Shown here piece by piece: positions 3-17,600 of a DNA stretch of 64,000 nt (positions are counted from its first letter, which is position 1; each line of letters opens with the position of its first letter). The stretch comes from a virus. The stretch lies in IMG/VR virus record IMGVR_UViG_3300031841_004520, positions 32,001 through 96,000 of that record; one strand, written 5' to 3'. Both the position numbers and the translations under genes were made by a program. The notes under the pieces were generated by a model. The model ran no database searches. It worked only from the letters and a program-made list of their open reading frames with translations, and was not told the origin of the DNA.

Positions 3-650
3 TATGACACCACTACCTCAGGAACTTACGCTTATACTATAGATTATAAAAATAGTAGAATTATATTTAATAACAGACAATCTTCCAATCTAAATATAGA
101 AATGAGTCATTCTTATAGGTGGGTTCAGATATACAACTTCGCAGACGCAAAATGGTGGCAAGAATTACAGTATAATCCAAATAATAATGAAGCTCATCAA
201 AAAACTAAAGATAAGGGTGATTTTACTATTCCTGCACATCAAAGGGTACAGATGCCAGCTGTAGTCATAGAGACTGTTGCTAGAGGCACATCAGATCCAT
301 TTCAAATGGGAGATAAATCTCAAAGGATTTCTCAAGACTTTTTGTTCCATATTATAGCTAATAATTATACGGATAGAAACAATATTATCGATATCCTAAG
401 ATTGCAAGAAGATAAAGTACTATCTTTTTACGATATGGATAAAGTGGTTAAAGATGGCAAATACTGGTTAAATTTTGATGGAACTCTTAATCCCAATAGA
501 CTTCAATATGATGTTTTATGTAAGCTTTCTAGCACATATCATTGGAATACATGTAGATTAAAAAATATGGTTATTTCGGAAGTGGAGTCGTTTAATGCTG
601 ATCTTTTCGAGGCAAATATCAGAGTAACTGCTGAAATTATAATAGTTTAA
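3..650 (+). CDS. Putative tail completion/terminator-like virion protein (5'-truncated by the window edge)
   Basis: The frame of ORF 102..650 is open back to base 3 (YDTTTSGTYAYTIDYKNSRIIF...). It lies directly before the tail-tube genes and has a PAVVIE motif followed by a beta-rich C-terminus. Function is inferred from synteny. Confidence 0.5.
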   Translation, partial: YDTTTSGTYAYTIDYKNSRIIFNNRQSSNLNIEMSHSYRWVQIYNFADAKWWQELQYNPNNNEAHQKTKDKGDFTIPAHQRVQMPAVVIETVARGTSDPFQMGDKSQRISQDFLFHIIANNYTDRNNIIDILRLQEDKVLSFYDMDKVVKDGKYWLNFDGTLNPNRLQYDVLCKLSSTYHWNTCRLKNMVISEVESFNADLFEANIRVTAEIIIV

Positions 651-657
651 AAAAAAT

Positions 658-670
658 GGTGTATAATAAT
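658..670 (+). promoter_or_regulatory. Putative phage promoter, GGTGTA-NN-ATAAT
   Basis: GGTGTATAATAAT follows an A-tract in the intergenic gap before the tail-tube gene. The same motif with the same spacing occurs at 47965-47977 on the - strand. Confidence 0.5.
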
Positions 671-710
671 TCAAGTCTACCGTCTAACAACAGAATAATC
701 GGAGAATATT

Positions 711-1658
711 ATGGCAAATAAAAGAGTGTTTTACGCTTCTCAAGGCGTGGCCGTTGCTCAGTCTGGGGTTAGTAGCCCTACAACGGTTACTGGTGCCCAA
801 AGCGTAACAATGAATACAAATTTTAATCTAGAACAGGTTTTCCAGCTGGGCCAACTGGCAGTTTATGACAATGTTGTTGGCGATCCTAGTGTAGAAGTCT
901 CTATTAGTAAGTCTCTGGATGGACAGCCTACTATCTATAACTTAGCTTGTGGTAGCGGCAGCCTTTTAGAGACAGCTTCTACTGTTAGCAAGGTGGAGTT
1001 TTGTGTTGGGTCTGATACGGTAAATAAGGTTGGTGATAACGCTACTAGTATTCCTAAAATTACTTGTGACCCTATATATCTACAAAGTTTGAGTTACAAT
1101 TTTGCTGTTGATGGAGACTTTACAGAAGAAGTAACATTTGTTGGATTGAGTAAAGTTATTGGAACTGGTCTTGTTACAACTCCTGGTGACGGAAACGCTA
1201 CCAGACAAACAGTTCTTAGAAGACAGAACTTTGATCAACTCAGTTCTAGTCTTCCAAGTCAGGTAGATGGAAAAAATATTCAAAGCATTAGCCTTAGTGC
1301 TGACCTTGGTCGTGAATCTATGTACAAAATGGGTAGATTCAAAGAATTCCATAGATATGTTAACTTCCCGCTTGAAATTTCAATGGACATTGAAGTTATT
1401 GCAGATAGCCTTGATGACGTTGCTGTTGATATTCCTGATGCAAGTTGCTCAGGTCTTAACCTTCCAAAACAAGATTGTGTTTTGCAATTTTGCGACTCTG
1501 AAGGAAGCGGAAGCTACACATTCACTTTGGGTGATGCTACTTTAACTAGTGTTGCATTTGGTGGTGGCGATACTGGTGGTGGAAATGCCAATCTGACATT
1601 TTCATACGTTGTATACAATAGCTTTACAATTGCTAGTGCTGCTTCTCATGCTGGCTAG
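711..1658 (+). CDS. Major tail tube protein (putative), paralog 1
   Basis: 315 aa with a GGAG RBS. Beta-rich and S/T/G/V-rich, upstream of the chaperones and TMP. Starts with NKRVFYA and ends with GGDTGGGNANLTFSY. Confidence 0.65.
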   Translation: MANKRVFYASQGVAVAQSGVSSPTTVTGAQSVTMNTNFNLEQVFQLGQLAVYDNVVGDPSVEVSISKSLDGQPTIYNLACGSGSLLETASTVSKVEFCVGSDTVNKVGDNATSIPKITCDPIYLQSLSYNFAVDGDFTEEVTFVGLSKVIGTGLVTTPGDGNATRQTVLRRQNFDQLSSSLPSQVDGKNIQSISLSADLGRESMYKMGRFKEFHRYVNFPLEISMDIEVIADSLDDVAVDIPDASCSGLNLPKQDCVLQFCDSEGSGSYTFTLGDATLTSVAFGGGDTGGGNANLTFSYVVYNSFTIASAASHAG

Positions 1659-1685
1659 TGTTTAAATAATTAATAGGATTTTTTG

Positions 1686-2645
1686 ATGGGAAACAAAAGA
1701 GTGTTTTATGCCTGTCAGGGGCTAATGCTTGATGGCAAGCCCCTGTATGGCGTACAAAACGTTTCTGTAAGAACAGAACAAAATACTAACGTTGTAGAAA
1801 ACTGGGGCTCTTTGCATATCAGTGGGGTGGCTGTTGACACACCTCGTTCTACCGTTACTATTAGCAGAATCATAGCATCACCTGCTACCGGCGTACCACA
1901 AGGTTCTGGTATATATGGATCTATTGTAAGTGGAGACTTATCTGCAGTAGCCACGAATCACAGTAGTCAATTGTGTTTATTTGTTACAAATGACACAGAT
2001 CCAGGAGTGAGCGATGAATCTACCTCTGTAAGAAACGTATCTTTTAAGGATTGTAGTATAAATAGCCTGTCTTACAGTATTAATGTAGACGGATATTTGA
2101 CAGAGAATACTGAAATAATAGCTTATAACAAAGTACATAATGGTAGTGGATGTCCAATAGGCAGTATGGATTTCAAAAAAAATCAGGCGCACCCAATACA
2201 GAGGCAGGATATAAACTCTTTTGATTTTTCAAATAAAGTTACTTCTTCTGGAGCTATACAAAACATAAGTATTTCTATTCCATTTAACATACAAACCGTT
2301 GATGAGTTTGGTACTGCAATGAGTAGGCACTCTAAGGGTTATCGCTTCCCTACTCTCCCTATAGCCTCCACTCTCTCTGTTTCTGTAATATATCAGAACA
2401 CCGACAGATTTGATAATTATATGTTTGCAGAACCAACTGGTACCACTAGCTGTGATTATATACCGCCAGACTTTCCTCAAGTTACTGGTCTTAGTTTTTC
2501 TGCTTGTGGTGGCTTTGGTGTTAGTTTAGGCAATTGTGTATTGCAAAGTATAGATTATGAGGGTGGTGATGTTGGTGGCGGAAATGCAACACTAACATAT
2601 GATTTTGTGTGCTATAATTCAGGAAGTATACATGGACAAGAATAG
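1686..2645 (+). CDS. Tail tube-like protein, paralog 2
   Basis: Shares NKRVFYA, QxxS-like and GGDxGGGNAxLT motifs and similar length with 711..1658. ATG at 1686 follows AGGA. Confidence 0.6.
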   Translation: MGNKRVFYACQGLMLDGKPLYGVQNVSVRTEQNTNVVENWGSLHISGVAVDTPRSTVTISRIIASPATGVPQGSGIYGSIVSGDLSAVATNHSSQLCLFVTNDTDPGVSDESTSVRNVSFKDCSINSLSYSINVDGYLTENTEIIAYNKVHNGSGCPIGSMDFKKNQAHPIQRQDINSFDFSNKVTSSGAIQNISISIPFNIQTVDEFGTAMSRHSKGYRFPTLPIASTLSVSVIYQNTDRFDNYMFAEPTGTTSCDYIPPDFPQVTGLSFSACGGFGVSLGNCVLQSIDYEGGDVGGGNATLTYDFVCYNSGSIHGQE

Positions 2646-3645
2646 AATTCTGTCAAGATTGCTCAAAGGCTATTATTTTGTTAAGGTGAAAAATTTTAAA
2701 CTCAAAGTTAAGCCCCCAACAGTATATGTAGAAAATAAGGCAGCGCTATACCACGATAAAATTCTAGAAGATCTAAAATTTGATGATAGTCAAGATTGGT
2801 TAGATGAAGACAAAAGGATGTTTATTTTAACTATAAATAAAATATGGGACAATAGTCAACAAAAAGAACTTGACACACTACTTGATGACATAATCATATT
2901 GAAGAAAGAGCTATTTAAAAACTTTAATTTGGTTGATACTAGAAAATTAATTAAAGAAAAAATCAAAGATAACGAGTCTAGAATAAACGTATTGCACAAT
3001 ACAAGATATACATACTTTGATCACACAAAGCAATCATATGCAAATGTGTTAAAAAATCATTATATTATTAAAAATACGGTGTATTTAAAAGACAGATTGT
3101 TTTTTAAGATTCAGAAAGAACAACATTTGTATTATCTACAAAGACTTTCTAACCTTATAACAGAATTAAATATTCAGGACATTAGAAGTATAATACATTG
3201 TGATTCTTGGAAAAGTTTATGGGAAAGTGCTAAAACAGGCGTTTTCGACAAACCTATAAAAGACTGTAATGTTGAACAAAGGATGGCTATTACAGCTAGT
3301 ATGATGTTGGATAATATTAGACAGCATCCTGATTGTCCAAGTGAAGAAATCCTGAAAGATTCCGATGCGTTAGATGGTTGGGTATTATTCCAAAACGATA
3401 AATTCGAAAAACAACAAAAGAAGCAAGCAATAGAAACTAATATAAAAGACAAAAATGCTGGAGAGGTTTTCGTTATGGCTAGTAGTCCAGAGGAGATAAA
3501 ATCTATAATGGAATTAAATGACCCATTAACTAAGTCTCAAATAAGAAGATCGATAGACCATGCAGCAAAGACAGAAGGTCCGACTAAATGGCAGGATATT
3601 CCTGGAATGAAAGAAGCCATAATAAGAGAGAATAAAAATGAATAA
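2632..3645 (+). CDS. Putative tail assembly chaperone, paralog A
   Basis: Likely start is ATG 2632 (MDKNRIL) after AGGAAG. Helical and charged. Its N-terminal half aligns by eye with 3939..4811. Confidence 0.5.
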   Translation: MDKNRILSRLLKGYYFVKVKNFKLKVKPPTVYVENKAALYHDKILEDLKFDDSQDWLDEDKRMFILTINKIWDNSQQKELDTLLDDIIILKKELFKNFNLVDTRKLIKEKIKDNESRINVLHNTRYTYFDHTKQSYANVLKNHYIIKNTVYLKDRLFFKIQKEQHLYYLQRLSNLITELNIQDIRSIIHCDSWKSLWESAKTGVFDKPIKDCNVEQRMAITASMMLDNIRQHPDCPSEEILKDSDALDGWVLFQNDKFEKQQKKQAIETNIKDKNAGEVFVMASSPEEIKSIMELNDPLTKSQIRRSIDHAAKTEGPTKWQDIPGMKEAIIRENKNE

Positions 3646-3946
3646 AAAATATCAGAGAGAATTGCTACGCAAAGCAGAAACTAGATTTAAGACTATCATG
3701 ATAGGCTCAATAGCTAGAGTAGAAGAATATTTTGGTTATTTGTGGGCACACGGCAAAGACAATCCCACAGAAAGAGAAGAAGAGTTTAGGGTCTTGTGGG
3801 ATGAACTAAGGAATGAAATTCTTAACCATGGTAATTATAACATTAGAAAAGGATTGGATGATATATACGAGACATTTGAACAAGGTGAGAGTAAGTACGA
3901 ATATAATTTTATTATGAAAGACAAAAGGAGCAATCAAGATGGATGA
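3638..3946 (+). CDS. Hypothetical phage protein (tail module)
   Basis: 102-aa ORF overlapping both neighbours. Confidence 0.6.
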   Translation: MNKKYQRELLRKAETRFKTIMIGSIARVEEYFGYLWAHGKDNPTEREEEFRVLWDELRNEILNHGNYNIRKGLDDIYETFEQGESKYEYNFIMKDKRSNQDG

Positions 3947-4811
3947 AAATGATTTTAAGATAACTAAAGGCAAGGAAGAGATTGAATTAACGGTCAAATC
4001 GCCTTCACCTAAAAATCAAAGAGAAAGCCAAAAAATTTATAATAGAGCTTTTTCTGATGCTTTAAACTCTGGCTCTATAGTTAGAGCTAGGTTAGACGAC
4101 GTAATGAAAGAGCAAAAGTTATGGGATGATAAGAAAGAACAAGAGTATCAAGATATACAAAAGGGTGTTCTAGAAAATGAAAGAATACTGGCAAAAGGTG
4201 GGATTTCTTTGCAAAAAGCTAGAGAATGCGCACTTAAGATGCAGAAATTAAGAGAAGATTTAAAAAATTTAATATCTGAAAGGACAACGCTAGACTCACA
4301 TACTGCAGAAGGTCAGGCTGATAACGCTAAATTTAATTTCTTAGTATCTTGTTGTGTGGTGTATAAAGATACTAATAAGCCTTATTTTGAAGGATATGAG
4401 GATTACAATAAAAGGGCTATTGAACCAGCAGGTATTATTGGTGCTCAAAAGTTAGCCAATATGCTTTATGGTTTAGATGATGATTTTGAGAAAAATTTAC
4501 CAGAAAATCAATTTTTACATAAATATAAGTTTGTAGATGAAAACCTCCGACCTATCAATAGTGACGGTAAGCTTGTTGATAATGAAGGTAGACTTATTGA
4601 TGAGTATGGTAGATTCATTGATGATAAGGGTAATCGTGTAGATATTGAGGGCAATCCATTAGATGATGACGAAAATTATAAATTTGAGTTCTCTCCATTT
4701 TTAGACGATAGTGGAAAACCCATTATAGAAGATGAAGACAAAGATGAAGAAAAACCTAAACCTAAACCGAAGACTAGAGCAAAAGCAAAAAAAGATATTG
4801 AGTCTTCATAG
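3939..4811 (+). CDS. Putative tail assembly chaperone, paralog B, with DxxGxx heptad repeats
   Basis: AGGAG RBS, directly upstream of the TMP. Contains C-terminal 7-aa repeats and an acidic then basic tail. Confidence 0.55.
   Translation: MDENDFKITKGKEEIELTVKSPSPKNQRESQKIYNRAFSDALNSGSIVRARLDDVMKEQKLWDDKKEQEYQDIQKGVLENERILAKGGISLQKARECALKMQKLREDLKNLISERTTLDSHTAEGQADNAKFNFLVSCCVVYKDTNKPYFEGYEDYNKRAIEPAGIIGAQKLANMLYGLDDDFEKNLPENQFLHKYKFVDENLRPINSDGKLVDNEGRLIDEYGRFIDDKGNRVDIEGNPLDDDENYKFEFSPFLDDSGKPIIEDEDKDEEKPKPKPKTRAKAKKDIESS
4536..4679 (+). repeat. Protein-level 7-aa tandem repeat (DxxG[R/K/N]xx)
   Basis: DENLRPI-NSDGKLV-DNEGRLI-DEYGRFI-DDKGNRV-DIEGNPL-DDDENY. Confidence 0.75.
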
Positions 4812-4839
4812 TCAATTTTTATCTATTCATAACTTTAAC

Positions 4840-4875
4840 ATAGCCCTTTGTGTAATATCATTGGGCTATTTTTTT
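4840..4875 (+). terminator. Intrinsic terminator/attenuator-like hairpin before the TMP
   Basis: Stem ATAGCCC (4840-4846) pairs with GGGCTAT (4863-4869) around a 16-nt loop, followed by a T-run and then the GGAG RBS. Confidence 0.55.
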
Positions 4876-4887
4876 GGAGTTTAAAAT

Positions 4888-7800
4888 ATGGCACAGCCTT
4901 TTAATCTTACAGCACAGCTTAACTTGCAAGGCCCTTCTAATGTAAAAAAAGTAGTTGCAGATATTAGAAGACAGCTTGGAACCATTAAAGCAAATGTAGA
5001 CCTTAACATTAAAGGGACTACAGCCAAGAATATTGCTGGAATTAATAAACAGCTGAACTCTTTAGCTGCTGCCGCTAAAAATGCTCAGGGTAATGTTACC
5101 ACTCTAGGTGCTGCTCTGAAAAGTTTAAATAGCGGATTTAATAGTGCTAATTCTACAGCTAAAACTTTTAATAAGACAGCAGCATCTACAGGCAAAAATA
5201 TACAAAATAGTGCTCAAAGTGTTCAACAAGCTACTACTGCTGTAGAAGAGTTTGGTAAACAATCCGCATTGGCCGTTAAGCGTTTTGCTGCTTTTAGTGT
5301 TGTTACTTCTGTGATAAATAGATTTAGTAGTGCTGTTAGTGATAGTTTTAAAACCTTTATTGCTTTTGATAGACAGCTAGTAAGAGTTGCTCAAGTTACT
5401 GGTGGTACTGCTGCGGACATAAAAGCATTGTCAAACGAGATAGGAAGTTTAGCCGCTAAGTTTGGTGTTGCTTCTACTGATTTGGCTGAAGTTTCTGTTA
5501 CTTTAGCACAAGCAGGTTTAAGTGCAAATCAGGCGAAGGTTGCTTTAGAAGCATTGGCCAAAACATCATTAGCTGCTACATTTACTAATATTAACAATAC
5601 AACAGAGGGCAGTATTGCTCTTATGCGTCAGTTCAAAGTTAGTGTGCAAGACCTAGAGAGTGCTCTTGGATCTATTAATGCTGTTGCTGGTGAATTTGCT
5701 GTGGAATCTAGTGATATCATTACTGCAATTTCTAGAGCTGGTGGTGTGTTTGCTGCTGCTAGTAAGGGAGTGAGTACTGGTACAGAAGCCTTGCAAGAAT
5801 TTGTTGCTGTTTTTACTAGTGTAAGATCTACTAGTCGTGAAAGCGCAGAAACTATTGCTACTGGTTTGCGAACTATTTTTACTAGAATTCAACGTGGCAG
5901 CACAATAAAGTTCTTAAAAGAGTTCGGTGTGGAGCTGCAAGATGTAGAGGGTAAGTTTGTTGGTCCATTTGAAGCCGTTAGAAGACTTAGCGATGCGTTG
6001 CAGGGACTTGATCCTAGAGATGTTCGGTTTACAAAAATTGTAGAAGAACTTGGTGGCTTTAGACAAATTGGTAAAGTTATCCCTTTAATTCAAGAGTTTG
6101 CAACTGCACAAGAAGCATTAGCAGTCGCACAAAGAGGTTCAGGATCATTAACCAAAGATGCTGTAACAGCACAGGCAGCTCTTGCAGTACAATTTCAAAA
6201 AACTCGTGAAGAATTCAACAATCTAATTAGAGATATTGGACAGAGTGCTACTTTTCAAACCATTACTAAACTTGTACTGGGATTAGCTAATTCCTTTATT
6301 AGTGTAGCTGGAGCTTTAAAGCCAATACTACCTTTGATTACTGCACTTACTGCAGCAAAAGGCTTTAAGTTTATTACTGAATTTATGAGTGGGTTTAAGG
6401 GAGGTCTTGGGGGTGGTGGCGGACTAGCTGGTGCTCTTGGTGGTGGTGGAGGTGCTCCATCTGGTGGCGGTGGCGGTGGCGCTGGTGGTGCAGTACAGGC
6501 AAACACTACAGCTTTAACCTCAAGCACTTCAGCAATACAGCAATTAACTACAGCTATAAATAATTTGGTTGGCGGTACTAAAACACAGCCTTTAGGAGCA
6601 TTGCAAGGAATAAAATTTGCTAGAGGTGGAGATGTTCCTGGCACAGGCAATAGAGATACTGTTCCGGCAATGTTACAGCCAGGAGAGTTTGTAATTCGTA
6701 AAAGTGCTGTAGACGCATTCGGTAGAGATAATCTTGCTAGGATTAATAAGTATAACAATGGAGGACCTGCTAAAAGGGCCGGTATTTCAGAAGTCAAAAG
6801 AATTACTAAAGTTTTAGATGGAGACACCTTCGATGCTGAAGTTGTACCAACTCGTGAGTCTTTTACCGCTAGATTTAGACCAGAGGGATATGATGCTTAT
6901 GAAACTAGTGGTATCAGTAGGGTCGCACAAGATAGGCTAGAAAGACTAAGAGAGCTTAATAGAAATAATGCACAAATAAGTGCAGCGTTACGAAATCCCA
7001 AAATCAGTGGCACTGACCCAGGTATTGAAATACCAGAAAATACCTTAATAGAACAGAATAGAACCGCTTTGGATGCAGCAAAGAGTGGGACAAAACAGTA
7101 CGCTGCATATCTTGAGAAGAACAAAGATATTCTTGCAGATCAGATACTTAGAGAAGATGGTGGTTTTGGTAGATATCTTATTGATCATGGCGGTGTTCCT
7201 ATTGGGCCAAGAAATGTAACTGGTAGATTTAGTAAGTTTGCTACTGGCGGAGCAGTTTCAGATACTGTTCCTGCTATGCTTACTCCCGGCGAGTATGTAA
7301 TAAACAAGAAGTCTGCCCAAGCATTTGGTTATGGTAATCTCAAGAAGATTAATGGTTATGCTCAGGGTGGTGTTGTTAAAAATGGAGTTCAGCATTTTAG
7401 TAATGGAGGTATGGCTGATAGACTTAGTGAAGCATTTTCTGATCAAAATATAGCCAAACAGCTTAAAGCTACCTCTATACAAGTAAGAAGATTTGGTTTA
7501 ACTTTACAAAGAGGAGCATCTAAAGCTAGTAAAAAAGTATCTGATAACTTTAGGGTTGCTAGTATACAAACTCAAAGATTCGGTCTTCGCATTGATGAAG
7601 CAAGTAAGTTTACAGGGAGTTTTGTTGGTACTTTTAGTGCTGGTCTTGCTGCTTTGACTCCGCAAATAGATAGCATGGTAGCTAGTTTTGATCAGCTAAA
7701 CGGTACAACCTTAGCAACTAGCGAAGAGTTTATGGGCTTTCGAAAAGGCTTGGAAGGAGCTACATCAAAAGGTTTAAGTGCTTCTATTGCAGCCCAGCAA

Positions 7801-10800
7801 GCTGGTTTTGGACGAAAGAGCACTGCACTAATCGCTGGTGGAGCCGCTGTATCTGGCGCAGTGTCAGGATTTATTGCAGGAGGATCACAAGCACGAGAAA
7901 GAGAGTTTAGGGCAGAGGGTGGCAAAGCTGATGTTAGACGTTCACAGGCTCGTGAAGATTTTAATTCAGCTGGTACAGAGAAGCAGCAATTACAAGCATT
8001 AGCAGATTTTACGGATGCGACTGTAGATTATAACGCTAGTATAGCAGCGGCAAATAAAGAATACATGAGCGAGACTGCTAGGCTTGGTAGAGCTATTGGA
8101 TCGGTTACTGATGGTATTCTTGGCGGACTAATGTTACTTGGTGGTATCAGGGGTGCTAGGGGTGCTATGGGGAGATCTGCAGGTGGTCCTGTTTATGCTA
8201 GTAAGGGACAGTATGTTAATTATGAGCCTAAAGGTACAGATACCGTACCGGCTATGCTGAGTCCTGGTGAATTTGTTGTTAATGCTAGATCTACTAAACA
8301 AAACAAAGGATTGCTAGAAGCTATTAATAAAAGTAAAGGCGGTACGATAAGAAGCCCAGTTTACTTGCGTAATGGTGGGATGTCTTACGACGAGGCTAGA
8401 AAACTAGGATATAGTCATAGTGAAGCTTATGCTATGAATAAGAAGAACATAGAGAGCTCAGGCTCCAAAAATGCTGGTTTCTTTGGTGGGATAGGTTATC
8501 TGGGGCAGCTGAGTCAGTTTTATAATCCTTTTGATAATACTAAAAGAGAAGGTAATGATTCTTTAGGTGAAGGAATTAGAAATACTGGTAGAGGATCAAT
8601 GGCTATAGCAGCTGCGGCAGGTACAGCCGCTGGTGGTCTAGCTCTGGCTCCTGGTCTTGCTGCTGGGGTTGGTGGTACTGGGGCTCTTGGTACTGCTTCC
8701 AACGTAGGTTTCGGCGCAATGGATGCTGCGGACTTTGCTGCAGATCCTTCACTTGCTACTGGAGCAATGTTAGCTACTAATTTTATACCTGGATCTGGTT
8801 TCATTAAAGGTGGTGCTAGAGGGGTAAAGGCTGCAAAGGGAGCAACTCAAGTCGCTAAGACAGCGAAGGCTTCAAAGACAGCATCAAAAGCTAGTAAGAA
8901 AGGTGGTGGGTTCTTTAGTAGACTGTTTGGTGGTGGTAAAAAAGCGACACCAGGTGCAGTAACTCCTCCACAGACACCTTTGCGTCGAACACCAGGAGCG
9001 TCTCCCGTAACTCCAGGGGCAGGCAAGCCTAGCAGCTCCCTGCGGCGAGACTTTATCGGACCTCCTGCTCCACCTCCTAAAGTCCCCAAAGCAACATCAG
9101 TAACTGGTAAAACCAGCAGAACACGAACAGGAATGAGAAGACGTGGATTTGGTAGAACCGGTAAGTTTGGAAGGGCAATGAATATGGCAGGCAATGCTGC
9201 TTCGCTAGGGATGTTTGCGCTTGGTGCTGCTGGTGGCATAAGTGAAGGCGTAAGTCAATATATGGGAACAGATGCTGAATCAGCCGCTAGAATGCAACAA
9301 GCTAGTCTTGACAGATTTGCAGGAACTAAAGAAGGAGCCATAAAGAGAGGTCAGATAGGTAGGTTAGATAGTCCTGTAAATCAAAGAGTGTTAGAAAACT
9401 TCGACAGAGTTAGAGCTGGCGGCGGAAGCGCAGAATTTCAAAGAAGACAATTAGGACAATCTGATGTTAATGATTTAACAACAGGAGGTTTATTAAGTGA
9501 ACAGCGTAGACAAGAAAGTATAAGACAAGCAACCAGTAAGATCGGTGCCGAGGGTGGCAGTTCTATCAATATTGCAGCAGACGAAACAGCACAAGAATTC
9601 ATGGCCAGTGATAGGTATGCTGCCTTAAAGGACGATGAGAAAAAAGCTATTGAAAAGGCCATAGTCGCTGGAGAGAGACAATTAACCAACGATGCTTATA
9701 GGGCTGCTAGAGCAAAAGAACTAGAGCGTGCAGGCATCTCTGCTGCAGATGCTCAGAAACAGATAACTAAAGAATTACATGAGAATACTGATGTCAATGG
9801 TAATCTGACAGGAGCTGTAGCCAGGCGAGCAGAATTAGAAAGAGGTATAGCTGAAGAGACAGCCTCCAAAGCACTTAAGGCTGCTATGGAGCAGAAGAAA
9901 TTTACCAGACAGACAGCAGATCTTACTGCAATTATGACACGAGCTAGTGCTAGTTTTAAACGGCTAAGTAGCGAAATGGATGTTGTTGTTGCGTCTACTA
10001 ATTCTATGGTGGGTGCAATAGGAGGTCAAGCGACCGCTGCTTCTGGTGTTCGTGGTAGTGCGGCTGTTAGAGATGCAGAAGTTCTTAAAAATCCTACAGC
10101 TTTCTCTACATCGGAACTTGATGCTACATTAGCTAGAGCCGTAACAGGCTTAGGGGGTAGTGAGCCAATACAACAAGCTGCAGATTTGACAAGAGCCCAA
10201 GCTGGATTCGACAAACTTAAACCTACCATTGAGGCAGCGTTAAAGGGAGAAGGCGGATCAAGTTTAGATCGTACCGATATTGTAGATATGCTGGAAAAAG
10301 GATTTAAAGATTTAAAAATAGAAGCTCCTGATGGATTTCTTGATGCTGCGGCAGAATCTTTGCAAGGAGGCGAAGGTGCAGGAAAAACTTTAAGCATGAT
10401 GTTGACAAAGTCTAAACAAGCCAACGAACTTCTTGCACAATATGCTGATCTTGCTGCTAAAGGTTTACAGCAACTAGCTGGTCAATCTGATTTACTTAGT
10501 GCTAGTTTGTCTAGAGTTAAAACTTTGCGTGGTGAAAAAGCTGCAATCGATGCTGAGGGTAACGTTAATTTGAAAGAAGCTTTAGGGTTTGATCCTTCTA
10601 AAGGTGAGTTAACGGCTGGTAGAGATGCCAGAATTGGTGCTTTAACTGGCGGAACCACAGATCCTAATGCTATATTTAATCAAATGCAATCGGATTTAGA
10701 TACTCGTAAAACTTTAGAGGGAGGCGGCACAGTAAATATTGGTGGCGAAGAGATGGACCAACAAGCTGCATTAGCTAGTGGAGAAATGGCTAAGTTAAAT

Positions 10801-11802
10801 AGTAGTATTAATGATTCTAGAAAAGCTCTTGAGATGTTGGCCAACGACACTACGGCTGCAGATGCCGCGTTGCAAAAAATTGCTGATAGAGATTCTCAGT
10901 TAAGAGAACAGTCTTCTACGGCATTAGACATGGTCGCTGATCCTAGCAAAGCCCTAGATTTTATTGGTCAAAGTCAATCGTTAAGCAGGGTGTTGAGTGG
11001 TCAGGGTGGTTTCCAAGATGTTGGGGCTGGCAAGGCTGCTTTAGGCCAATTAGAAGGCATGATTCCTCCAGAGATGTTTGCTAAATTACAAGAAAAATTC
11101 TTTAAGGGAGCAGGTCAAGGTACTGGGTTGGGGGGTGCCTTGCAACCATTTGCTGCTGGTGCTGCCAGTGGTATTGATGGCAAAAAAGATGATCCTGTTA
11201 TGGCTCGTGAAATTGCGGCTTTTGAAGAAGCTAACAAGATAAGAAAAGAAGCAACAGACAAACTAATCGCACTTGAGCTACAAGCTGGTGAAGCTATTCA
11301 GGGTAGTCTTACTACTTTAAATGATCAAATCACTAATCAGCTTGCTCCCATAATAGATCAAATCAATACCGAACTTACCACTTTCAAAAATAATGTTGCT
11401 GCTGCTAATGGTGGCGGTGCTGGTGGGGCCGGTGGGGCCGGTGGAGCTGGAGCTGGTGCTCCTCCTCCTCCTGAGGGTGGTGTAGCTGGTGCTGCTCCTG
11501 CTAACAATCCTTTGGCGGGCATACAGGCTCCAAATATTTCGAAGGAAGGCAGAGAAAACCTTGGTTATAAAGATTCTATGGCTGATGATATGGCGGCTCG
11601 TGGTGGAGGATCTGCAAACAACACCATGCAACTACAAGCACCATCAGAGCCAATGCAAGTATCCATAAGTCTAGACGCAGGATCACAAGCAGCTTTAGGT
11701 GCAGCTGGAACAGAAGAGATCAAGAAAGCCATGTCTAGGATAGGTGACTTAATATACGAAAAAACAAATAGCAGTATAGATATTAGAGGGGGATTGGCTT
11801 AA
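4888..11802 (+). CDS. Tail tape measure protein with internal SNase-like nuclease and repeated DTVPAMLxPGE modules
   Basis: 2304 aa and Ala/Gly-rich. Has a TP901-type TMP core (LAQAG...IATGLRTIFTRI...LGGFRQ) and sits between chaperone and baseplate genes. Confidence 0.9.
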   Translation: MAQPFNLTAQLNLQGPSNVKKVVADIRRQLGTIKANVDLNIKGTTAKNIAGINKQLNSLAAAAKNAQGNVTTLGAALKSLNSGFNSANSTAKTFNKTAASTGKNIQNSAQSVQQATTAVEEFGKQSALAVKRFAAFSVVTSVINRFSSAVSDSFKTFIAFDRQLVRVAQVTGGTAADIKALSNEIGSLAAKFGVASTDLAEVSVTLAQAGLSANQAKVALEALAKTSLAATFTNINNTTEGSIALMRQFKVSVQDLESALGSINAVAGEFAVESSDIITAISRAGGVFAAASKGVSTGTEALQEFVAVFTSVRSTSRESAETIATGLRTIFTRIQRGSTIKFLKEFGVELQDVEGKFVGPFEAVRRLSDALQGLDPRDVRFTKIVEELGGFRQIGKVIPLIQEFATAQEALAVAQRGSGSLTKDAVTAQAALAVQFQKTREEFNNLIRDIGQSATFQTITKLVLGLANSFISVAGALKPILPLITALTAAKGFKFITEFMSGFKGGLGGGGGLAGALGGGGGAPSGGGGGGAGGAVQANTTALTSSTSAIQQLTTAINNLVGGTKTQPLGALQGIKFARGGDVPGTGNRDTVPAMLQPGEFVIRKSAVDAFGRDNLARINKYNNGGPAKRAGISEVKRITKVLDGDTFDAEVVPTRESFTARFRPEGYDAYETSGISRVAQDRLERLRELNRNNAQISAALRNPKISGTDPGIEIPENTLIEQNRTALDAAKSGTKQYAAYLEKNKDILADQILREDGGFGRYLIDHGGVPIGPRNVTGRFSKFATGGAVSDTVPAMLTPGEYVINKKSAQAFGYGNLKKINGYAQGGVVKNGVQHFSNGGMADRLSEAFSDQNIAKQLKATSIQVRRFGLTLQRGASKASKKVSDNFRVASIQTQRFGLRIDEASKFTGSFVGTFSAGLAALTPQIDSMVASFDQLNGTTLATSEEFMGFRKGLEGATSKGLSASIAAQQAGFGRKSTALIAGGAAVSGAVSGFIAGGSQAREREFRAEGGKADVRRSQAREDFNSAGTEKQQLQALADFTDATVDYNASIAAANKEYMSETARLGRAIGSVTDGILGGLMLLGGIRGARGAMGRSAGGPVYASKGQYVNYEPKGTDTVPAMLSPGEFVVNARSTKQNKGLLEAINKSKGGTIRSPVYLRNGGMSYDEARKLGYSHSEAYAMNKKNIESSGSKNAGFFGGIGYLGQLSQFYNPFDNTKREGNDSLGEGIRNTGRGSMAIAAAAGTAAGGLALAPGLAAGVGGTGALGTASNVGFGAMDAADFAADPSLATGAMLATNFIPGSGFIKGGARGVKAAKGATQVAKTAKASKTASKASKKGGGFFSRLFGGGKKATPGAVTPPQTPLRRTPGASPVTPGAGKPSSSLRRDFIGPPAPPPKVPKATSVTGKTSRTRTGMRRRGFGRTGKFGRAMNMAGNAASLGMFALGAAGGISEGVSQYMGTDAESAARMQQASLDRFAGTKEGAIKRGQIGRLDSPVNQRVLENFDRVRAGGGSAEFQRRQLGQSDVNDLTTGGLLSEQRRQESIRQATSKIGAEGGSSINIAADETAQEFMASDRYAALKDDEKKAIEKAIVAGERQLTNDAYRAARAKELERAGISAADAQKQITKELHENTDVNGNLTGAVARRAELERGIAEETASKALKAAMEQKKFTRQTADLTAIMTRASASFKRLSSEMDVVVASTNSMVGAIGGQATAASGVRGSAAVRDAEVLKNPTAFSTSELDATLARAVTGLGGSEPIQQAADLTRAQAGFDKLKPTIEAALKGEGGSSLDRTDIVDMLEKGFKDLKIEAPDGFLDAAAESLQGGEGAGKTLSMMLTKSKQANELLAQYADLAAKGLQQLAGQSDLLSASLSRVKTLRGEKAAIDAEGNVNLKEALGFDPSKGELTAGRDARIGALTGGTTDPNAIFNQMQSDLDTRKTLEGGGTVNIGGEEMDQQAALASGEMAKLNSSINDSRKALEMLANDTTAADAALQKIADRDSQLREQSSTALDMVADPSKALDFIGQSQSLSRVLSGQGGFQDVGAGKAALGQLEGMIPPEMFAKLQEKFFKGAGQGTGLGGALQPFAAGAASGIDGKKDDPVMAREIAAFEEANKIRKEATDKLIALELQAGEAIQGSLTTLNDQITNQLAPIIDQINTELTTFKNNVAAANGGGAGGAGGAGGAGAGAPPPPEGGVAGAAPANNPLAGIQAPNISKEGRENLGYKDSMADDMAARGGGSANNTMQLQAPSEPMQVSISLDAGSQAALGAAGTEEIKKAMSRIGDLIYEKTNSSIDIRGGLA
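6616..8379 (+). repeat. Three dispersed copies of the [F/Y]xxGG...DTVPAMLxPGE[F/Y]V...IN...GG module in the TMP
   Basis: Copies lie at about 6616-6765, 7237-7371 and 8173-8379 (DTVPAMLQPGEFV, DTVPAMLTPGEYV, DTVPAMLSPGEFV). Confidence 0.9.
6793..7200 (+). other. Staphylococcal nuclease (thermonuclease)-like domain within the TMP
   Basis: VLDGDTF (DGDT at 6817-6828), R-x4-D-x2-E (RPEGYDAYE, 6877-6903) and FGRYL (R at 7171). Confidence 0.75.
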
Positions 11803-13691
11803 TGTCAAATTATTTTGAAAATACTAAAAGTAGTACTGAATATCATGTTATGACAGAAGAGGTTACTGCATCTGGCACTACGGTGACATTGGGCAGCATT
11901 GGCAAATTAGAGCCTGTTCCTTTTGTTTCTATATCTCTAGAAAAATATACAGTAGGAGACAAAACTCTTGGGGGTGTGTTAAATCTATCTTTAGAAGGTG
12001 TTTTCTATGGACAAAACTTTGATGATACAGCTTCTCAGTTGAAATCAAAAATAGACACCTTAGCAGATCAACATAGCTGCATGACAGGGATTAATATCAA
12101 ATGTGGCGATACAACAATTATCTCAAGCGGAATAGGGTATATAAGAAGTTATGCTTTTCCTCAAGGTCCGCAAAAAAATTGGATGAATATAATTCCTTAT
12201 AATATAGATGTTGTTATCACTCATCAAGGTACTGATCCTGTAGTGAAACCAGACGGGCAATTAAAACTTAAATATGATATAGATAACAATACAGCCATAA
12301 GAAGTATTAGAGAAAGTGTAAGTTGGTCATTAAATGAAAATACCCTTCAGATGTATAATCCAGATCCTAGTAAATATGACACGTATGTGTCAGCATATAC
12401 TAATGAGCATATAGTTGTTCAATATTCTTTAGATATACAGGGTTTTGGTGTTTGTGGAACTGGCTGTCATGATATTGCCGTTTTGAATGCGTTAGATTCC
12501 GCAAAACATGTTGCTGACTATAGAATACACAATATGCAAAACTTAAATACGTCGTCTTTTAGTTGCGATAGCTCAGGATTATTACCAAACAATTATGATA
12601 CCACTATTAGATATGATCATACAAGAGACATTAGCGTTAATGAACTAGAGGGCAGTTTAAGTGTTAAGGGGCAATATATCGTTAGACCTAGTGGCGCAAA
12701 GAAAGACACGCTAATGACAATGGAATCTTCTGCTGATTCTAGTTTAGATAGTGGAGAAAAAACAGTCACTCTTACTGGCAGTATTAGAGGTCTTGTTCAG
12801 AATGAGTATACAACATCTGGCGATGGCAATGGTAATCACTACAGCCCTAAGGATAGTGAAACTCTTATAGATAAAAAATCAACCGCTATGGATGCTGCTG
12901 AACTAGAAATGCAGAATATCATGGTTAGTGGTACCGGTATAATTAAGGAAATAGCTAAACATAATCAGTTGTTAAAATTTAATGCTGCCGTAGGAGATAA
13001 TACTGGTAAAACACTAGCAAACATTTCTAGTACCAACGCTAATACTTGGCAAGCCGGAGATTCAGATAATACTGAATTTAGACTATTGGGCAAAAGTATT
13101 AAAAGAAATTATCCTAATAGTACAATTGATTTTACTTTAACTTATTCTAATAAAAGCAGACATAAAATAGCTAATGCTTTATGGGCAGAGATTAGTATAG
13201 ATCACGAAATGCCTTCTAGAAGATTAGTTGAACATGTAATCCCTGGTAGAGGGTATCCTTTAATGCAAGATATATTGTGTGATACACAAGATGTGTTTAC
13301 TATAAATGTAACTGCACAATTTGAGCCAAACAGTAATATTAAAAACATTATTAATGCAGCTCGTGAAGAGATATTGGTTTTAGTATATAATACTGCTGTT
13401 AGTTTAGGTATAGGTGGATACATTCGCACAGGAGATAGTGAAAATATAGCAAACAATGGTAGTTATAAAAGAAGTATAAAACTAACCAGCCCAACGTGTA
13501 ACAATATAACAACCAGTAATACTACTTTGGATTACTTAGAGATGCCAGGTGATACATTCACTAATGCTGCACAATTAGATCTTACCACATTGAATCCAGA
13601 AGCTTTTGTGCAAGATGACTTTGAGACTGAACGGGGTATTATTCCAGCATCAATACCAGAGTTTGACAAAACAAGAGATAAGCCAGAATAA
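11802..13691 (+). CDS. Putative distal tail/baseplate protein
   Basis: 629 aa and beta-rich. Start overlaps the TMP stop codon (TAATG). Called from synteny. Confidence 0.5.
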   Translation: MSNYFENTKSSTEYHVMTEEVTASGTTVTLGSIGKLEPVPFVSISLEKYTVGDKTLGGVLNLSLEGVFYGQNFDDTASQLKSKIDTLADQHSCMTGINIKCGDTTIISSGIGYIRSYAFPQGPQKNWMNIIPYNIDVVITHQGTDPVVKPDGQLKLKYDIDNNTAIRSIRESVSWSLNENTLQMYNPDPSKYDTYVSAYTNEHIVVQYSLDIQGFGVCGTGCHDIAVLNALDSAKHVADYRIHNMQNLNTSSFSCDSSGLLPNNYDTTIRYDHTRDISVNELEGSLSVKGQYIVRPSGAKKDTLMTMESSADSSLDSGEKTVTLTGSIRGLVQNEYTTSGDGNGNHYSPKDSETLIDKKSTAMDAAELEMQNIMVSGTGIIKEIAKHNQLLKFNAAVGDNTGKTLANISSTNANTWQAGDSDNTEFRLLGKSIKRNYPNSTIDFTLTYSNKSRHKIANALWAEISIDHEMPSRRLVEHVIPGRGYPLMQDILCDTQDVFTINVTAQFEPNSNIKNIINAAREEILVLVYNTAVSLGIGGYIRTGDSENIANNGSYKRSIKLTSPTCNNITTSNTTLDYLEMPGDTFTNAAQLDLTTLNPEAFVQDDFETERGIIPASIPEFDKTRDKPE

Positions 13692-13703
13692 TAAGGAAAT
13701 TAT

Positions 13704-14621
13704 ATGTTTAGGATTTACTACAATACAAAAGTAAGAAATTTTAATAAAGTATTACACAAGCCTAAGGTGTTACATAAGGCTTACAACTATATTTATTGTA
13801 GAGATATTGATCTAAATACTATACAGCCGGGACAAACTTTTAATATAGGTAATTTAGAGCAAACTATTTTAGAAAAAGATAGTGATGGTTTCTTTGTAGC
13901 TCCTGGATTACATATGCCAAATCCTTTATCAAAAGCAGACTTTGTGATTAACTTATTTGGAAATCAACACAATATGTCTTTTAATGCTTTTTCTTCTTAT
14001 AACTCTATGCTCGTTGGTTCTTTGATTTATCCTAGTTTTTATTCACATATAAACGTTGGAGATGAAGCCAGAGCAATAGACATACATGACAATATAGTAT
14101 ATATACAAAATTTAGAAATAACTAGTTTAGAAAATGTAGAAAGTGTTTATTTAAATGACACCATGACTACTGTAGCAAAATTTAATAAAAATTTAGAGTT
14201 GTGCGATTGGCTCAACAAAGCCTCCAACTTATCAATATATTCTTTAACTACTGTCTTAAAAAATTTAGATATGAATGTTTATTTTAGGTGTTATGGTGGA
14301 TCACCTAAGTCCAATTTTGTAGATAATCCAATGCCGCAGTATAAACTAGAAATTACTGACTTGGATACAGAAGAGACTGTGACAAAATATATTTATCAGT
14401 TTCATAGTGAGACTATTAGTGCAAAACATAGATATAAACTTATGGTTAAAGACGAGTTAAATAACATTCCTGTATTGGTTAATGATAGTAGTACTGATGG
14501 CAATATATATGTTGATTTTTCTAATATGGATAATTTTACTATGATGTCTCAAAAAACTACTACATCTAGAAAAACACTTGCAGAAATAGCAGAACCTTTG
14601 TTCCAAAGAAGAGTAAAATAA
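13704..14621 (+). CDS. Hypothetical protein (tail module)
   Basis: 305-aa ORF with AAGGA RBS. Confidence 0.55.
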   Translation: MFRIYYNTKVRNFNKVLHKPKVLHKAYNYIYCRDIDLNTIQPGQTFNIGNLEQTILEKDSDGFFVAPGLHMPNPLSKADFVINLFGNQHNMSFNAFSSYNSMLVGSLIYPSFYSHINVGDEARAIDIHDNIVYIQNLEITSLENVESVYLNDTMTTVAKFNKNLELCDWLNKASNLSIYSLTTVLKNLDMNVYFRCYGGSPKSNFVDNPMPQYKLEITDLDTEETVTKYIYQFHSETISAKHRYKLMVKDELNNIPVLVNDSSTDGNIYVDFSNMDNFTMMSQKTTTSRKTLAEIAEPLFQRRVK

Positions 14622-17600
14622 TGCCTATTAATGATCAATACGACAATAATTTACACATACAATCTCCTGGTAAATTTAATCAGGCAAGTAGCACAAACCC
14701 TATAACTTACCAGAGGTTCTTAAATTGTGATGTTAAGGGTTTTAATTTGAACTTAGGTTTTGGTGGTGCTGAAACTACTATGACTATGGATCTAGTAGAG
14801 TCTTTAGTAGGAAATCCGCCAGCTCATAAAGCGAATGAGACTTTAGCGACTTTTAGAGATCGGTGCAATACCAATCCTCCTGATTCAGATTGCAATCAAC
14901 TTCGTTACAGTGGGGAGTTAGGTAGAGTATATACATTTATAGCAACAAATGTGGATGATGATGAAGTCTTTGAATTTTCAGGAATACTGTCTGACCACGA
15001 TATAAAAATAGATAGTAATGGTCGAACTATAACCATACGGCTGACCGATGGTCGTGTTGCGTTAGAAAATGTTCAATTAGTTATAGGAAATAATTATTCT
15101 AGAAACTATACTTATAATTCTGCTGGAGAAAGTGTTAATGTTTTAAATATTTTATATGAAACTGAAAAAGGTGTTAGTCATAGTTTTGATAATCTAGGCT
15201 TCGACCTTCCGACAGACCCATCAAATCCATTAGCTACATATAGTAAGTGTGATTATTTTATGGATAGTGGATATGACGATGACGGCATACCTGTGACATA
15301 TGTATTAGGTCAATTTATGTCTAGCGATAGATATATGTCCTTACCTCTTAGCGATCAAACGATAAGGATTAATTTAGATAACATATATAATACAGCATTA
15401 AACAGAGTTAGTTACATGCGTATTAATGATACTAGCATTAGTTTAATGGATTTATTGCAGCAGGTTTGTGAAGAAGCGGCTGGAGAACTAGTTATAAATA
15501 CAGAGAGTACAGCAACAGGATATGAAATAGTTGCTTCATTTATTGACAGAAGTGTACCTATACCATCTGATGGATATGCTTTAGGAGCATATGTACAAAG
15601 CAAATTTCCTGTTTATAAATCTTTAAGCTACGGCCAAGAATCATCTTACGAAACTACGCAAAATCTTGTCTTTGGATCTAAGATGAGATATTTTGTAGAA
15701 GTCCAAAGACAAAAAATGCATAGTATACCCACTAAAGATGCTGGTGCGATTATTAATAATCCTCTAGATGTCGTGGTGCCTGATATGTCTAGCGATGCTA
15801 CAGCAGATCACGACAAAGTAAAATCACAAGATCTTAGTGAGCCTCCAGAAGAGAGTTGCTATGATCCGGATGATTTTACTCCACCCAACGGAACATTTTG
15901 TAATATTCCTACTGGCGGTGGCCGAATTGCTATGGTTTTGGGAGAAAAACTTAATGGAGCATTAACAGATCAAGGTATACCTGCTTATACTTTATACTTA
16001 AGTAATCTTTGTGGAGATTATATGGGTATAACTTATGATCTTACAGAGATATGTAGTATTTTAGGTGTTGCAGATCAAGGGTCTGCATTATTGACAGAAG
16101 AAGAATTGCTGTTTAGCCAAACATACGAATCATATATTAATTGGGCTACTATGCATCCTAATAGTATTGGTTCTAAAATGGGAGCTGTGATTTTTGGAGA
16201 TCTTTGGGGCAATTTCCAAGAATATTCATTAAAGATTTTTGCAGACATTGTGGAGAATGGTAGTTTCGACAGCTTCAAAGACCCTGCATTAGCTTTTCCT
16301 GATGTTGAAGTTAGTAAAAAACTTTTTGAGGTTGTTCATGCTTATGTAAAAAATATATATGATACATATTATGGTAAAGAATATGTAGCTTTATTAGACA
16401 CTAGAACAAATCAAACTCTTCCAAAAAATAATTTTCAGGTTTGTATAGGTAAAAGTTTTAACACATGGACCAATCAATCTCAGGGAGATATCGCATTTCC
16501 TCAAGCTAATGCTAACGTAACAATACCTAATAATGATCCATTGTTGTTTATACAACAGGGAGTTTTGCAAAATGTTATCAAAACAGCAGGTAAAGGATAT
16601 TTAAGTACTAGCGAGACCGTATGTAATGGAGCTTGGTTTGGTGGTACTTCTTCTAGCGAAAGAGGAGCAACTAAGATTCTCAGTGATGAGCTGGGTAATG
16701 GTGGTTTAGGTACAGAAGACGGGTTGGCTAGATTTTTAAACGACGACAACACGATAGGTTCTTTTGTAAAATACGGTCCTGTAGATAGTATTTGTAAAAG
16801 GATAGGTGGGACCACTTTTGTGTTTCGTGTAGACTTGAGTGCTTTAAATCCTAGTGATTTTGTTGTTAGGACAGAAATAGTAGGCACTAAGCCAACAGCT
16901 ATGTTATATCTCAGGGCTAGTGTAAGTGAAGAGATGTATTTTGGTAAAATATCACTTACTAATAGTATTGACGTTTATACTGGCTTGGGTGAGCTTCAAG
17001 ATGATTATACATGGGTTAGATTTAGTATACCTAGAGTAAAACTTATTCCGACAGTAGGACAAGAAGGAGCTGTTGGTAGGGCCGCCAGTAGGATGGCGCT
17101 AATTGCTTTACAAGTTATGACAGATATGGGCTCTCTGTCTGGTATAATTGAAGGAGATTTTACTTTAAGAGATGCCATTGCAGACAAATTAGCTGGTGGA
17201 GGAATCAATCCTGGTGTTTTTGATGGGATAGCTGCAAACTTAGCTGTAACAAATTTAGCAAAAATGTCCATACCGGCTATTGTTCCAGAGGCAGTTGCTA
17301 TTCCTTTGCAGAGTGAAATCAGAACCTATGGCCCATGGAAAGGTGTTAGCAATCCTAGTGGCGGAATGAATGTAGTTGAAATGGATTTAGCTCCGTGGCA
17401 ATTTGGTTTCGGTCCTAATGCTCCTGCAGATAGCTACAATAGATTGGAGGCTATTGGGTCATCTCATGCTCAAAATGGAACCTTCGGTCGTCTGTATCAA
17501 GAAAAAGCTAGCATTTCCTTAGCTGGAATTCCTGAGATAAATATTGGTGTTCCGGCGAGTCAACTTAATCAAGATGGTACTACGACCGGTGATCCATACA

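Follow-up and report, generated by a model that had tools for sequence, protein, structure and literature searches.

Tape measure proteins (TMPs) are usually seen as rulers that carry an occasional wall-degrading domain. The TMP gene P0001 raises the question of whether such a ruler may also be divided into segments that are exchanged separately from it, and what such segments might do. The gene is located in a 64,000-nucleotide stretch of DNA from an uncultured phage (positions 32,001 to 96,000 of IMG/VR record IMGVR_UViG_3300031841_004520), which is termed the window and to which nucleotide positions refer unless another locus is named. An initial annotation, made from the window's letters and open reading frames (ORFs), had proposed that repeated modules at 6616-8379, corresponding to TMP amino acids (aa) 577-1164, divide the protein into swappable cargo cassettes. 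The analysis reported here supports the modules as conserved delimiters of autonomous TMP segments, and one of these segments, slot I1, is a true cassette with kinship to staphylococcal nuclease (SNase). The delimiters, the nuclease slot and the exchange are retained from the original proposal; its extension to other slots, to anchoring within the gene and to an analogy with toxins is not.

P0001 is the longest ORF of the plus-strand block, and matches above curated cut-offs classify its product as a TP901-type TMP. These matches are to PF10145 (aa 187-387; E=6.5e-22, 78.8 bits vs a cut-off of 33.2) and TIGR01760 (aa 147-466; E=6.7e-24, 84.6 bits vs a cut-off of 28.8). Several PHROG TMP families also match, including phrog_28 at E=1.1e-22.

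Repeated modules in the TMP

The TMP contains the core DTVPAML.PGE[FY]V at exactly three places, aa 590, 792 and 1118, each time within a module of about 50 aa that combines this near-invariant core with [FY]xxGG flanks. There are 18 invariant columns common to the three copies, and copies 2 and 3 are 54% and 40% identical to copy 1. A hidden Markov model (HMM) of the module detects all three at 66-77 bits (E from 1e-20 to 4e-24), and they are therefore not a product of chance. An explanation as a chance or low-complexity repeat was rejected on the basis of these scores and of conservation across thousands of proteins.

All six flanking motifs named in the initial annotation (FARGG, YNNGG, FATGG, YAQGG and YLRNGG, Table 1; FSNGG, 7396-7410, eight residues past YAQGG) are present where it had placed them. 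Its description of the modules as bounded by xxGG is accurate for the downstream side of every copy; on the upstream side, copy 3 lacks the motif and reads NYEPKG. Its remark that the protein motif is conserved while the codons differ is borne out as well. Within the 39-nucleotide core, 27-29 of the 39 bases agree between copies and 5-8 of the 13 codons differ synonymously, with a mean DNA column identity among copies of 67%. The longest exact DNA words common to the copies are 12, 8 and 9 nucleotides, too short for the copies to anchor recombination with one another inside the gene.

The motifs after modules 2 and 3 are paired (7357-7410 and 8332-8379), with YAQGG and FSNGG separated by 8 aa and SKGG and YLRNGG by 6 aa. 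Each pair resembles the borders of a slot with nothing in it. Among the modules of related TMPs, 217 of 527 have two such xxGG motifs within positions +20 to +70.

Cassette exchange at slot I1

Slot I1, which lies between modules 1 and 2, has been exchanged as a cassette between near-identical TMPs, and the breakpoints fall in the Gly-Gly that edges the modules. Across 18 relatives, module 1 is 71-92% identical, whereas the neighbouring slot is 13-56% identical. In P0002, the N-terminal part is 96-97% identical to the window TMP, module 1 90%, I1 51%, module 2 93% and the following inter-module segment, I2, 95%. P0003 is about 95-100% identical up to the residues INKY of module 1, 52% identical in the slot and about 96-100% identical from module 2 onwards. 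The flanks of P0006 are 72-89% identical to those of the window TMP, and its slot is unrelated (13%). In residue-level alignments, one break falls after INKY, where module 1 ends, and the other where module 2 starts. The P0006 insert contains a GYMFE...D...AELK pattern, and its reading as PD-(D/E)xK-like rests on this motif as seen by eye.

The exchange is also visible in DNA. An IMG/VR locus from a near-identical phage (L002, positions 1282-4901) was aligned to 4888-8600 of the window, and breakpoints were mapped in this one pair. Nucleotide identity is 99% over aa 1-186, 96% over aa 187-500 and 89% in module 1, drops to 48% in I1 (108 aa in L002 vs 156 aa in the window), and is 89% again in module 2 and 95% in I2. 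The L002 slot encodes a different, shorter SNase-like cassette. The codon alignment is near-perfect through the module 1 core and its helices, breaks down from the xxGG motif onwards and is restored at SDTVPAML of module 2. The cassette thus brings its own Gly-Gly edges along, and the conserved DNA that flanks it on both sides is that of the joint cores. L002 has a further short patch of divergence immediately ahead of module 1, and beyond module 3 the two sequences diverge once more (63% nucleotide identity).

This pattern is not restricted to one lineage. Among 30 TMP pairs in which both flanks are at least 85% identical, the slot is below 60% in nine, eight of which are below 30%, and at least five lineages are represented. 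When first-slot segments of up to 450 aa were clustered, 137 sequences formed 44 clusters, and 10 slot representatives from other phages gave no match that reached the Pfam threshold.

The initial annotation expected domains between modules to vary while their flanks stay conserved. This is the case for I1 and is not the case for I2, which all close relatives conserve. Its suggestion that modules are recombination anchors applies to exchange between genomes, which may proceed by crossover in the conserved DNA of the module cores, and does not apply to copies within the gene.

A nuclease-like domain in slot I1

The domain in I1 is supported, at the level of sequence, as an SNase-type domain in which the aligned set of catalytic and Ca-binding residues appears intact. 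I1 clusters with 19 other first-slot segments, and a family alignment of 14 slot sequences (A4) contains eight columns that are invariant in all 14 (D18, G19, D20, P28, R38, G41, D43 and E46). When a profile of this alignment was compared with Protein Data Bank (PDB) sequences, thermonuclease chains were matched at E=2e-6 over SNase residues 12-110, with the DGD, R, D..E and YGR elements in register. The 60 matches listed are all to staphylococcal nuclease, thermonuclease or, in one case, Nuclease A. This profile match supports the "nuclease" that had been proposed between modules 1 and 2 as a nuclease-like domain.

In the TMP, D646, R664, D669 and E672 align to key SNase positions and are invariant in the 14 sequences, and GR 761-762 aligns to the SNase YGR and is kept in most members of the slot family. 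The corresponding SNase residues are taken here to be Asp21 and Asp40 in Ca binding and Arg35, Glu43 and Arg87 in catalysis. The invariance of SNase-type residues in 14 divergent slot domains argues for selection for activity and not only for difference. The I1 copy has Ala and Tyr where SNase has Thr41 and Pro42, reading DAYE instead of DTPE.

Two of the 14 slot-family members match PF00565 weakly (E=8e-4, below the Pfam threshold), and searches of PDB sequences with single sequences or with a profile of the whole TMP gave no match for the slot. A search of the ESM Atlas with the slot gave a best score of 0.83 and, at rank 9, a cluster in which 26% of the members carry PF00565, and is treated as a lead only.

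Table 1. Features of the TMP gene in the window
Feature	Position	Strand	Basis
Tape measure protein gene P0001, 2,304 aa	4888..11802	+	ORF, 6,915 nt; PF10145, TIGR01760, phrog_28
TP901-type TMP core (PF10145), aa 187-387	5446..6048	+	Pfam match
Hydrophobic stretch, aa 459-488	6262..6351	+	Kyte-Doolittle 19-aa windows 1.5-1.65
Gly-rich tract, aa 503-535, between hydrophobic stretch and module 1	6394..6492	+	Sequence
Module 1, aa 575-626: FARGG 6616-6630, core DTVPAMLQPGEFV 6655-6693, YNNGG 6751-6765	6610..6765	+	HMM, 70.7 bits
Slot I1, aa 627-782, SNase-like: DGD 644-646, R664, D669, E672, GR 761-762	6766..7233	+	Family profile match
Module 2, aa 783-828: FATGG 7237-7251, core DTVPAMLTPGEYV 7261-7299, YAQGG 7357-7371	7234..7410	+	HMM, 77.3 bits
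Segment I2, aa 842-1092, conserved, not swapped	7411..8163	+	95% nt identity to L002; hydropathy
Module 3, aa 1110-1152: core DTVPAMLSPGEFV 8239-8277, SKGG ending 8343, YLRNGG 8362-8379	8215..8379	+	HMM, 66.2 bits
Hydrophobic Ala/Gly-rich stretch after module 3, aa 1240-1261	8605..8670	+	Hydropathy
Very basic, Pro-rich stretch, 79 aa (aa 1351-1429), many K, R and P	8938..9174	+	Sequence

Distribution of the module family

Judged from sequence, the modules belong to an old, very widespread and unnamed family of TMP "joints", of which lambda gpH is also a member. Pfam and NCBIfam contain no model that matches the modules, and the only PHROGs that do are two of unknown function. A search with TMP aa 560-1170 identified 3,262 long proteins among 8,000 scored. 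All 121 of the long TMPs that were examined carry between three and seven modules (546 in total), although these sets were picked by score and the copy numbers are accordingly biased upward. A profile built from 129 aligned module instances (A5) detects 32,656 protein-cluster representatives at E<=1e-3 and 9,581 at E<=1e-10, with up to 11 copies per protein and proteins of up to 7,872 aa. At the upper end of this range, P0122 and P0123 are predicted proteins of 7,794 and 7,872 aa with 10-11 joint copies; if they are rulers, the tail lengths they imply are extreme.

Across the family, the core has the form [DS]-x-x-P-A-x-L-x-x-G-E-[FY]-V, and it is followed by helices containing G...L...N, with Gly-Gly on both flanks. 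Thirteen core positions are 87-100% conserved across 525 instances, and both GG pairs are at least 90% conserved in the 129 aligned modules. An aromatic or aliphatic residue followed by xxGG is found within 28 aa upstream of 335 of 527 modules in the 121 related TMPs and between +20 and +50 downstream of 470 of them, and the background rate of this motif is 0.043 per 30 aa. Tandem joints with only 10-14 aa between them also exist, as in P0030. The distance from the last module to the C-terminus is 71 aa in lambda, 80 aa in a Nitrincola phage and 105-264 aa in most larger relatives.

Among cultured phages, a tblastn search found the module in 100-116 records, nearly all annotated as TMPs, from phages of Gordonia, Mycobacterium, Clavibacter, Nodularia, Streptomyces, Nitrincola and Ralstonia. 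When PDB sequences were searched with the A5 profile, mycobacteriophage Douge gp16 was matched in two copies (E=6.7e-14), lambda gpH at residues 732-785 (E=1.6e-6, 30 bits) and JBD30 gp46 at residues 1016-1066 (E=0.005). The profile reaches only 0.7 bits on T5 pb2 and gives no match on P23-45 gp96. The lambda Pfam family PF09718 was considered as the family of the module and rejected: its match to gpH, at residues 627-701, ends before residue 732 and so does not cover the module.

The module is also found in virion proteins of T4-like cyanophages, and it is therefore not confined to siphophage TMPs. Synechococcus phage S-SCSM1 (L084, 2195-5047) and phage S-SM2 (L083, 4005-6305) each have one strong copy (51-73 bits) in a protein encoded after gp26/gp51-like genes and beside baseplate hub genes. 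In the S-SCSM1 protein, a glucosaminidase domain follows 50 aa after the module. In the Gordonia phages Mollymur and Clawz (L086 and L088), an SLT transglycosylase domain is present about 275-290 aa past the last joint and before the C-terminus, so that the order in these TMPs is joint, wall-degrading enzyme, terminal part.

Enzyme-bearing TMPs are already known. Relative to the literature that was found, the new elements are a joint family that includes lambda gpH, the replacement of cassettes at joints as seen in DNA, and an SNase-type occupant. A search of the accessible literature for the motif and for nuclease-bearing TMPs found nothing. The same short module occurs in lambda, in actinophages and cyanophages, and in tens of thousands of uncultured phages, and it marks the edges of autonomous TMP segments; a profile of it would delimit cargo domains in very many giant TMPs.

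Possible roles of the joint and the slot

The arrangement favoured here is an exchangeable nuclease-type cassette, fenced by joints, that is probably carried in the tail and delivered to the host. The joint combines [FY]AxGG and a short linker rich in Gly with the core D-T-V-P-A-M-L-x-P-G-E-[FY]-V, which a pair of short helices and [FY]xxGG follow. Joints fence off autonomous segments of the ruler, with joints 1 and 2 bracketing the SNase-type slot, in which related phages carry other versions or unrelated domains. The TMPs of lambda and T5 are established to fill the tail lumen, to leave before the DNA and to be able to carry enzymes, and both are cut in tail maturation. Since TMPs of these and other phages lie in the tail lumen and leave it before the genome does, virions most likely contain the nuclease and release it into the envelope or the interior of the host cell when they infect. 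If delivered, it would be a ready-made virion enzyme able to act on host or foreign nucleic acid before phage gene expression.

The joint itself may be a flexible hinge or docking peptide, unstructured when alone, that serves tail assembly or maturation and makes room for a globular insert within a ruler that is otherwise extended. In the virion maps of lambda, Douge and JBD30, the module region is not seen, and the modelled part of each TMP is confined to its last 25-42 residues. Because the joint is near-structureless in prediction and absent from these maps, a transient role in assembly or maturation fits better than a fixed structural one. A predicted complex of three module copies scored 0.02, which speaks neither for nor against any of these roles.

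Several observations weigh against this arrangement. The window's own I1 copy has no Pfam match, and it has an insertion of about 45 aa compared with shorter members of its family. The SNase fold is a beta-barrel of the OB type together with three helices. A fold model of aa 560-860, built from eight sequences, has a mean pLDDT of 44, with values of 50-85 in only part of the barrel and about 30 in the modules, and a Foldseek search with this model gave no match at E<=0.001. Only one inter-module segment of this TMP behaves as a cassette, and the last module ends at aa 1152 of 2,304, so that none is near the C-terminus, 1,152 aa away. The fold predicted for one module from 129 sequences has a pLDDT of 63 and consists of two short helices only; as it is almost structureless alone, the role of the joint has to be inferred. 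The absence of the module from the lambda and Douge maps also means that there is no structural support for a docking partner. SNase entries crowd the weak Foldseek rows (TM 0.1-0.18) and were not counted as evidence.

It may be asked whether the joint is also the place where the ruler is cut, and this is a serious possibility, if the lesser one. In its broader form, which is rather doubtful, the joints would be maturation signals of a polyprotein: a phage or host protease would cut the [FY]AxGG and xxGG flanks after the tail is built, and the N-terminal part, the nuclease, the hydrophobic segment and the C-terminal part would lie free in the tail lumen and be ejected separately. The position of the module in lambda gpH is consistent with this, since the only module starts at residue 732, with FATGG at 733-737, and the approximate cut between gpH* and gpHC is nearby. 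The authors of the lambda work place that cut in a Gly-rich region, its exact site not being known, and estimate gpH* at about 78 kDa. The computed masses of gpH residues 1-710, 1-730 and 1-737 are 77.7, 79.3 and 80.1 kDa, but mass estimates from gels cannot tell residue 710 from 737. T5 pb2 is reported to be cut after R1127, and the next residues in its sequence are A-E-G-G; a hydrophobic stretch precedes the site in T5, lambda and the window TMP. The strong conservation of the GG pairs, already described, would also be expected of a processing signal. In JBD30, the hypothetical cut proposed by its authors at residue 1066 coincides with the end of the module match, although it is based on analogy and a predicted Arg-C site only. 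However, no residue-level cleavage has been mapped in any module-bearing TMP, and T5 pb2, the only TMP with a mapped site, is without a module match; its likeness to the module around R1127 is limited to the A-x-G-G after the cut. Self-cleavage is unlikely, because lambda, Douge and the marine set have in common just one residue that could be catalytic and is kept throughout, a Glu. In a Pfam survey of 58 window ORFs, the 25 families listed, out of 40, include no peptidase, and nine tail-region neighbours have no Pfam match. The most specific version of cleavage, in which a protease reads the invariant core and cuts the flanking [FY]AxGG, is unlikely. It would explain the conversion of lambda gpH to gpH* and gpHC, a 50-year-old question concerning a cut beside which the module lies. 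Multi-joint TMPs would then be virion polyproteins from which exchangeable enzymes, in this case a Ca-type nuclease, are set free in the host before the DNA arrives.

Alternatively, the joints may be purely structural and never cut, acting as register clamps or docking pegs for TMP strands, the tail assembly chaperone or the tube lumen, while the slot varies through an arms race with host exclusion or TMP sensing and not for enzyme delivery. The extreme conservation of the core while its surroundings drift fits a conserved binding partner. Position-specific copies are also kept, module 1 being far closer between phages than to module 2 of the same protein (71-92% vs 54%), and the tandem joints of P0030 would be compatible with docking. 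A bacterial Avs family is reported to sense TMPs. On the other hand, the module region is missing from the symmetric virion maps of lambda and Douge, so that mature particles show no docking that is stable and ordered. The SNase-type residues that are invariant across 14 divergent slot domains point to selection for activity and not only for difference, and two unrelated nuclease-like motifs, that of P0006 having been recognized by eye, are present in the same slot of close relatives. This explanation is judged improbable. It is still less probable that the slot domain binds nucleic acid, for instance the leading genome end in the tail, through an OB-fold that has no catalytic activity. SNase-like folds often serve as binding domains, and the large insertion and the Ala/Tyr replacement in the window copy would fit a binder. 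In OB-fold relatives that have lost activity, the SNase Asp, Arg, Asp and Glu are usually not retained, and the aligned residues are invariant in 14 of 14 slot sequences. TMPs are reported to contact the DNA end in the tail, which such a binder would suit.

Comparison with known systems

Lambda gpH resembles the window TMP in the order of its elements, with a hydrophobic stretch (residues 691-712 in lambda), a Gly-rich tract and then the module. It differs in that its one copy lies 71 aa before the C-terminus and an inserted enzyme is lacking, whereas the window TMP has three copies in its first half. The families also differ (TMP_2/PF06791 in lambda vs PF10145), and the lambda-type placement of the module, about 70-260 aa from the C-terminus and before the hub-binding terminal helix, is not found in the window TMP.

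Several phages have TMPs with known or probable enzymatic parts. Motif 3 of TM4 gp17, a peptidoglycan hydrolase within a TMP, is reported to be dispensable for viability and to aid infection (Piuri and Hatfull 2006). Mycobacteriophage TMPs of this type, which have host-like motifs embedded in them, resemble the window TMP in having a small embedded enzyme domain, and actinophage TMPs also carry the joint. The TM4 cargo acts on the cell wall, unlike the nuclease-like domain here, and the accessible part of the TM4 work describes neither a delimiting joint nor cassette exchange. Thermus phage P23-45 gp96 is described as a 5,002-aa TMP with a fused virion RNA polymerase that acts in the host after ejection. 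It is like the window TMP in that a nucleic-acid enzyme is part of a TMP and unlike it in that the RNA polymerase is N-terminal and no joint is matched. T5 pb2, which gives rise to pb2* and pb2C, is reported to be cut between its hydrophobic stretch and an enzyme domain, a metallopeptidase; with its negligible module score, its likeness to the window TMP is limited to xxGG. SNase itself is secreted and not embedded in a virion protein, and it lacks the DAYE variant and the insertion of about 45 aa that are present in I1.

The initial annotation also drew an analogy with polymorphic toxins and polyvalent proteins, and the resemblance is confined to variable domains that are exchanged on a conserved delivery scaffold. 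Polymorphic toxins end in a variable C-terminal toxin tip, with an immunity gene next to them and either a pre-toxin domain or a peptidase for release. In the window TMP, the variable part is internal, and the searches turned up no spare-cassette array, immunity gene or releasing peptidase; immunity genes were not specifically sought. Polyvalent proteins combine several enzymatic domains in one giant delivered protein, usually with a processing peptidase, whereas one enzyme-like domain is found here and no peptidase appeared in the TMP family scans. The TMP matches no Pfam family of toxins or peptidases, and the 25 families shown, out of 40, in the window survey include none. In 240 module-bearing relatives listed with precomputed Pfam assignments, most matches are to the TMP core, with EF-hand families, SHD1, Laminin_II, Gly-zipper and PF21724 also present. 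The only enzyme family among these 240 is the SLT transglycosylase, in two, and there are no toxin families. Together with the internal position of the variable domain and the absence of Pfam matches at threshold among the 10 slot representatives, this argues against the toxin analogy.

Other segments of the TMP and its genomic setting

Segment I2 has two hydrophobic stretches (7825-7881 and 8092-8148). Across relatives it is 25-95% identical in amino acids and always belongs to the same family, and it looks like ruler or channel and not like cargo. The region beyond module 3 had been described as toxin-linker-like, and the basic, Pro-rich stretch listed in Table 1 falls in part of it. A Pfam search with aa 1165-1571 gave no family match apart from one DUF2076 row below the threshold.

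The G+C content is 41-45% in the TMP gene (window positions 6001-12000) compared with 30-38% in most of the window, and this increase probably reflects Gly/Ala-rich coding. Eleven ORFs scanned in the surrounding structural region (102-4811 and 11802-25184), two of which encode 1,611 and 1,758 aa, have no Pfam matches, and a comparison of nine of them with PHROGs (all but the 1,611- and 1,758-aa ORFs) gave one weak row. Two ORFs upstream of the TMP gene, 3638-3946 and 3939-4811, lie where tail assembly chaperone genes would be expected. Family libraries leave the tail of this phage lineage essentially without annotation.

The families given for the minus-strand block at 25174-63886 come from a Pfam survey of the window as a whole, not of individual ORFs. 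Among them are DNA polymerase III alpha, which has a PHP domain, a DnaB-type helicase, Toprim, SSB, RecA and PhoH. The same block encodes dCMP deaminase, dNMP kinase, HNH endonucleases and a PD-(D/E)xK nuclease. Its sugar genes include two group-1 glycosyltransferases, a UDP-glucose/GDP-mannose dehydrogenase, an epimerase and an aminotransferase. The source of the window is a large lytic-type phage with sugar-modifying genes.

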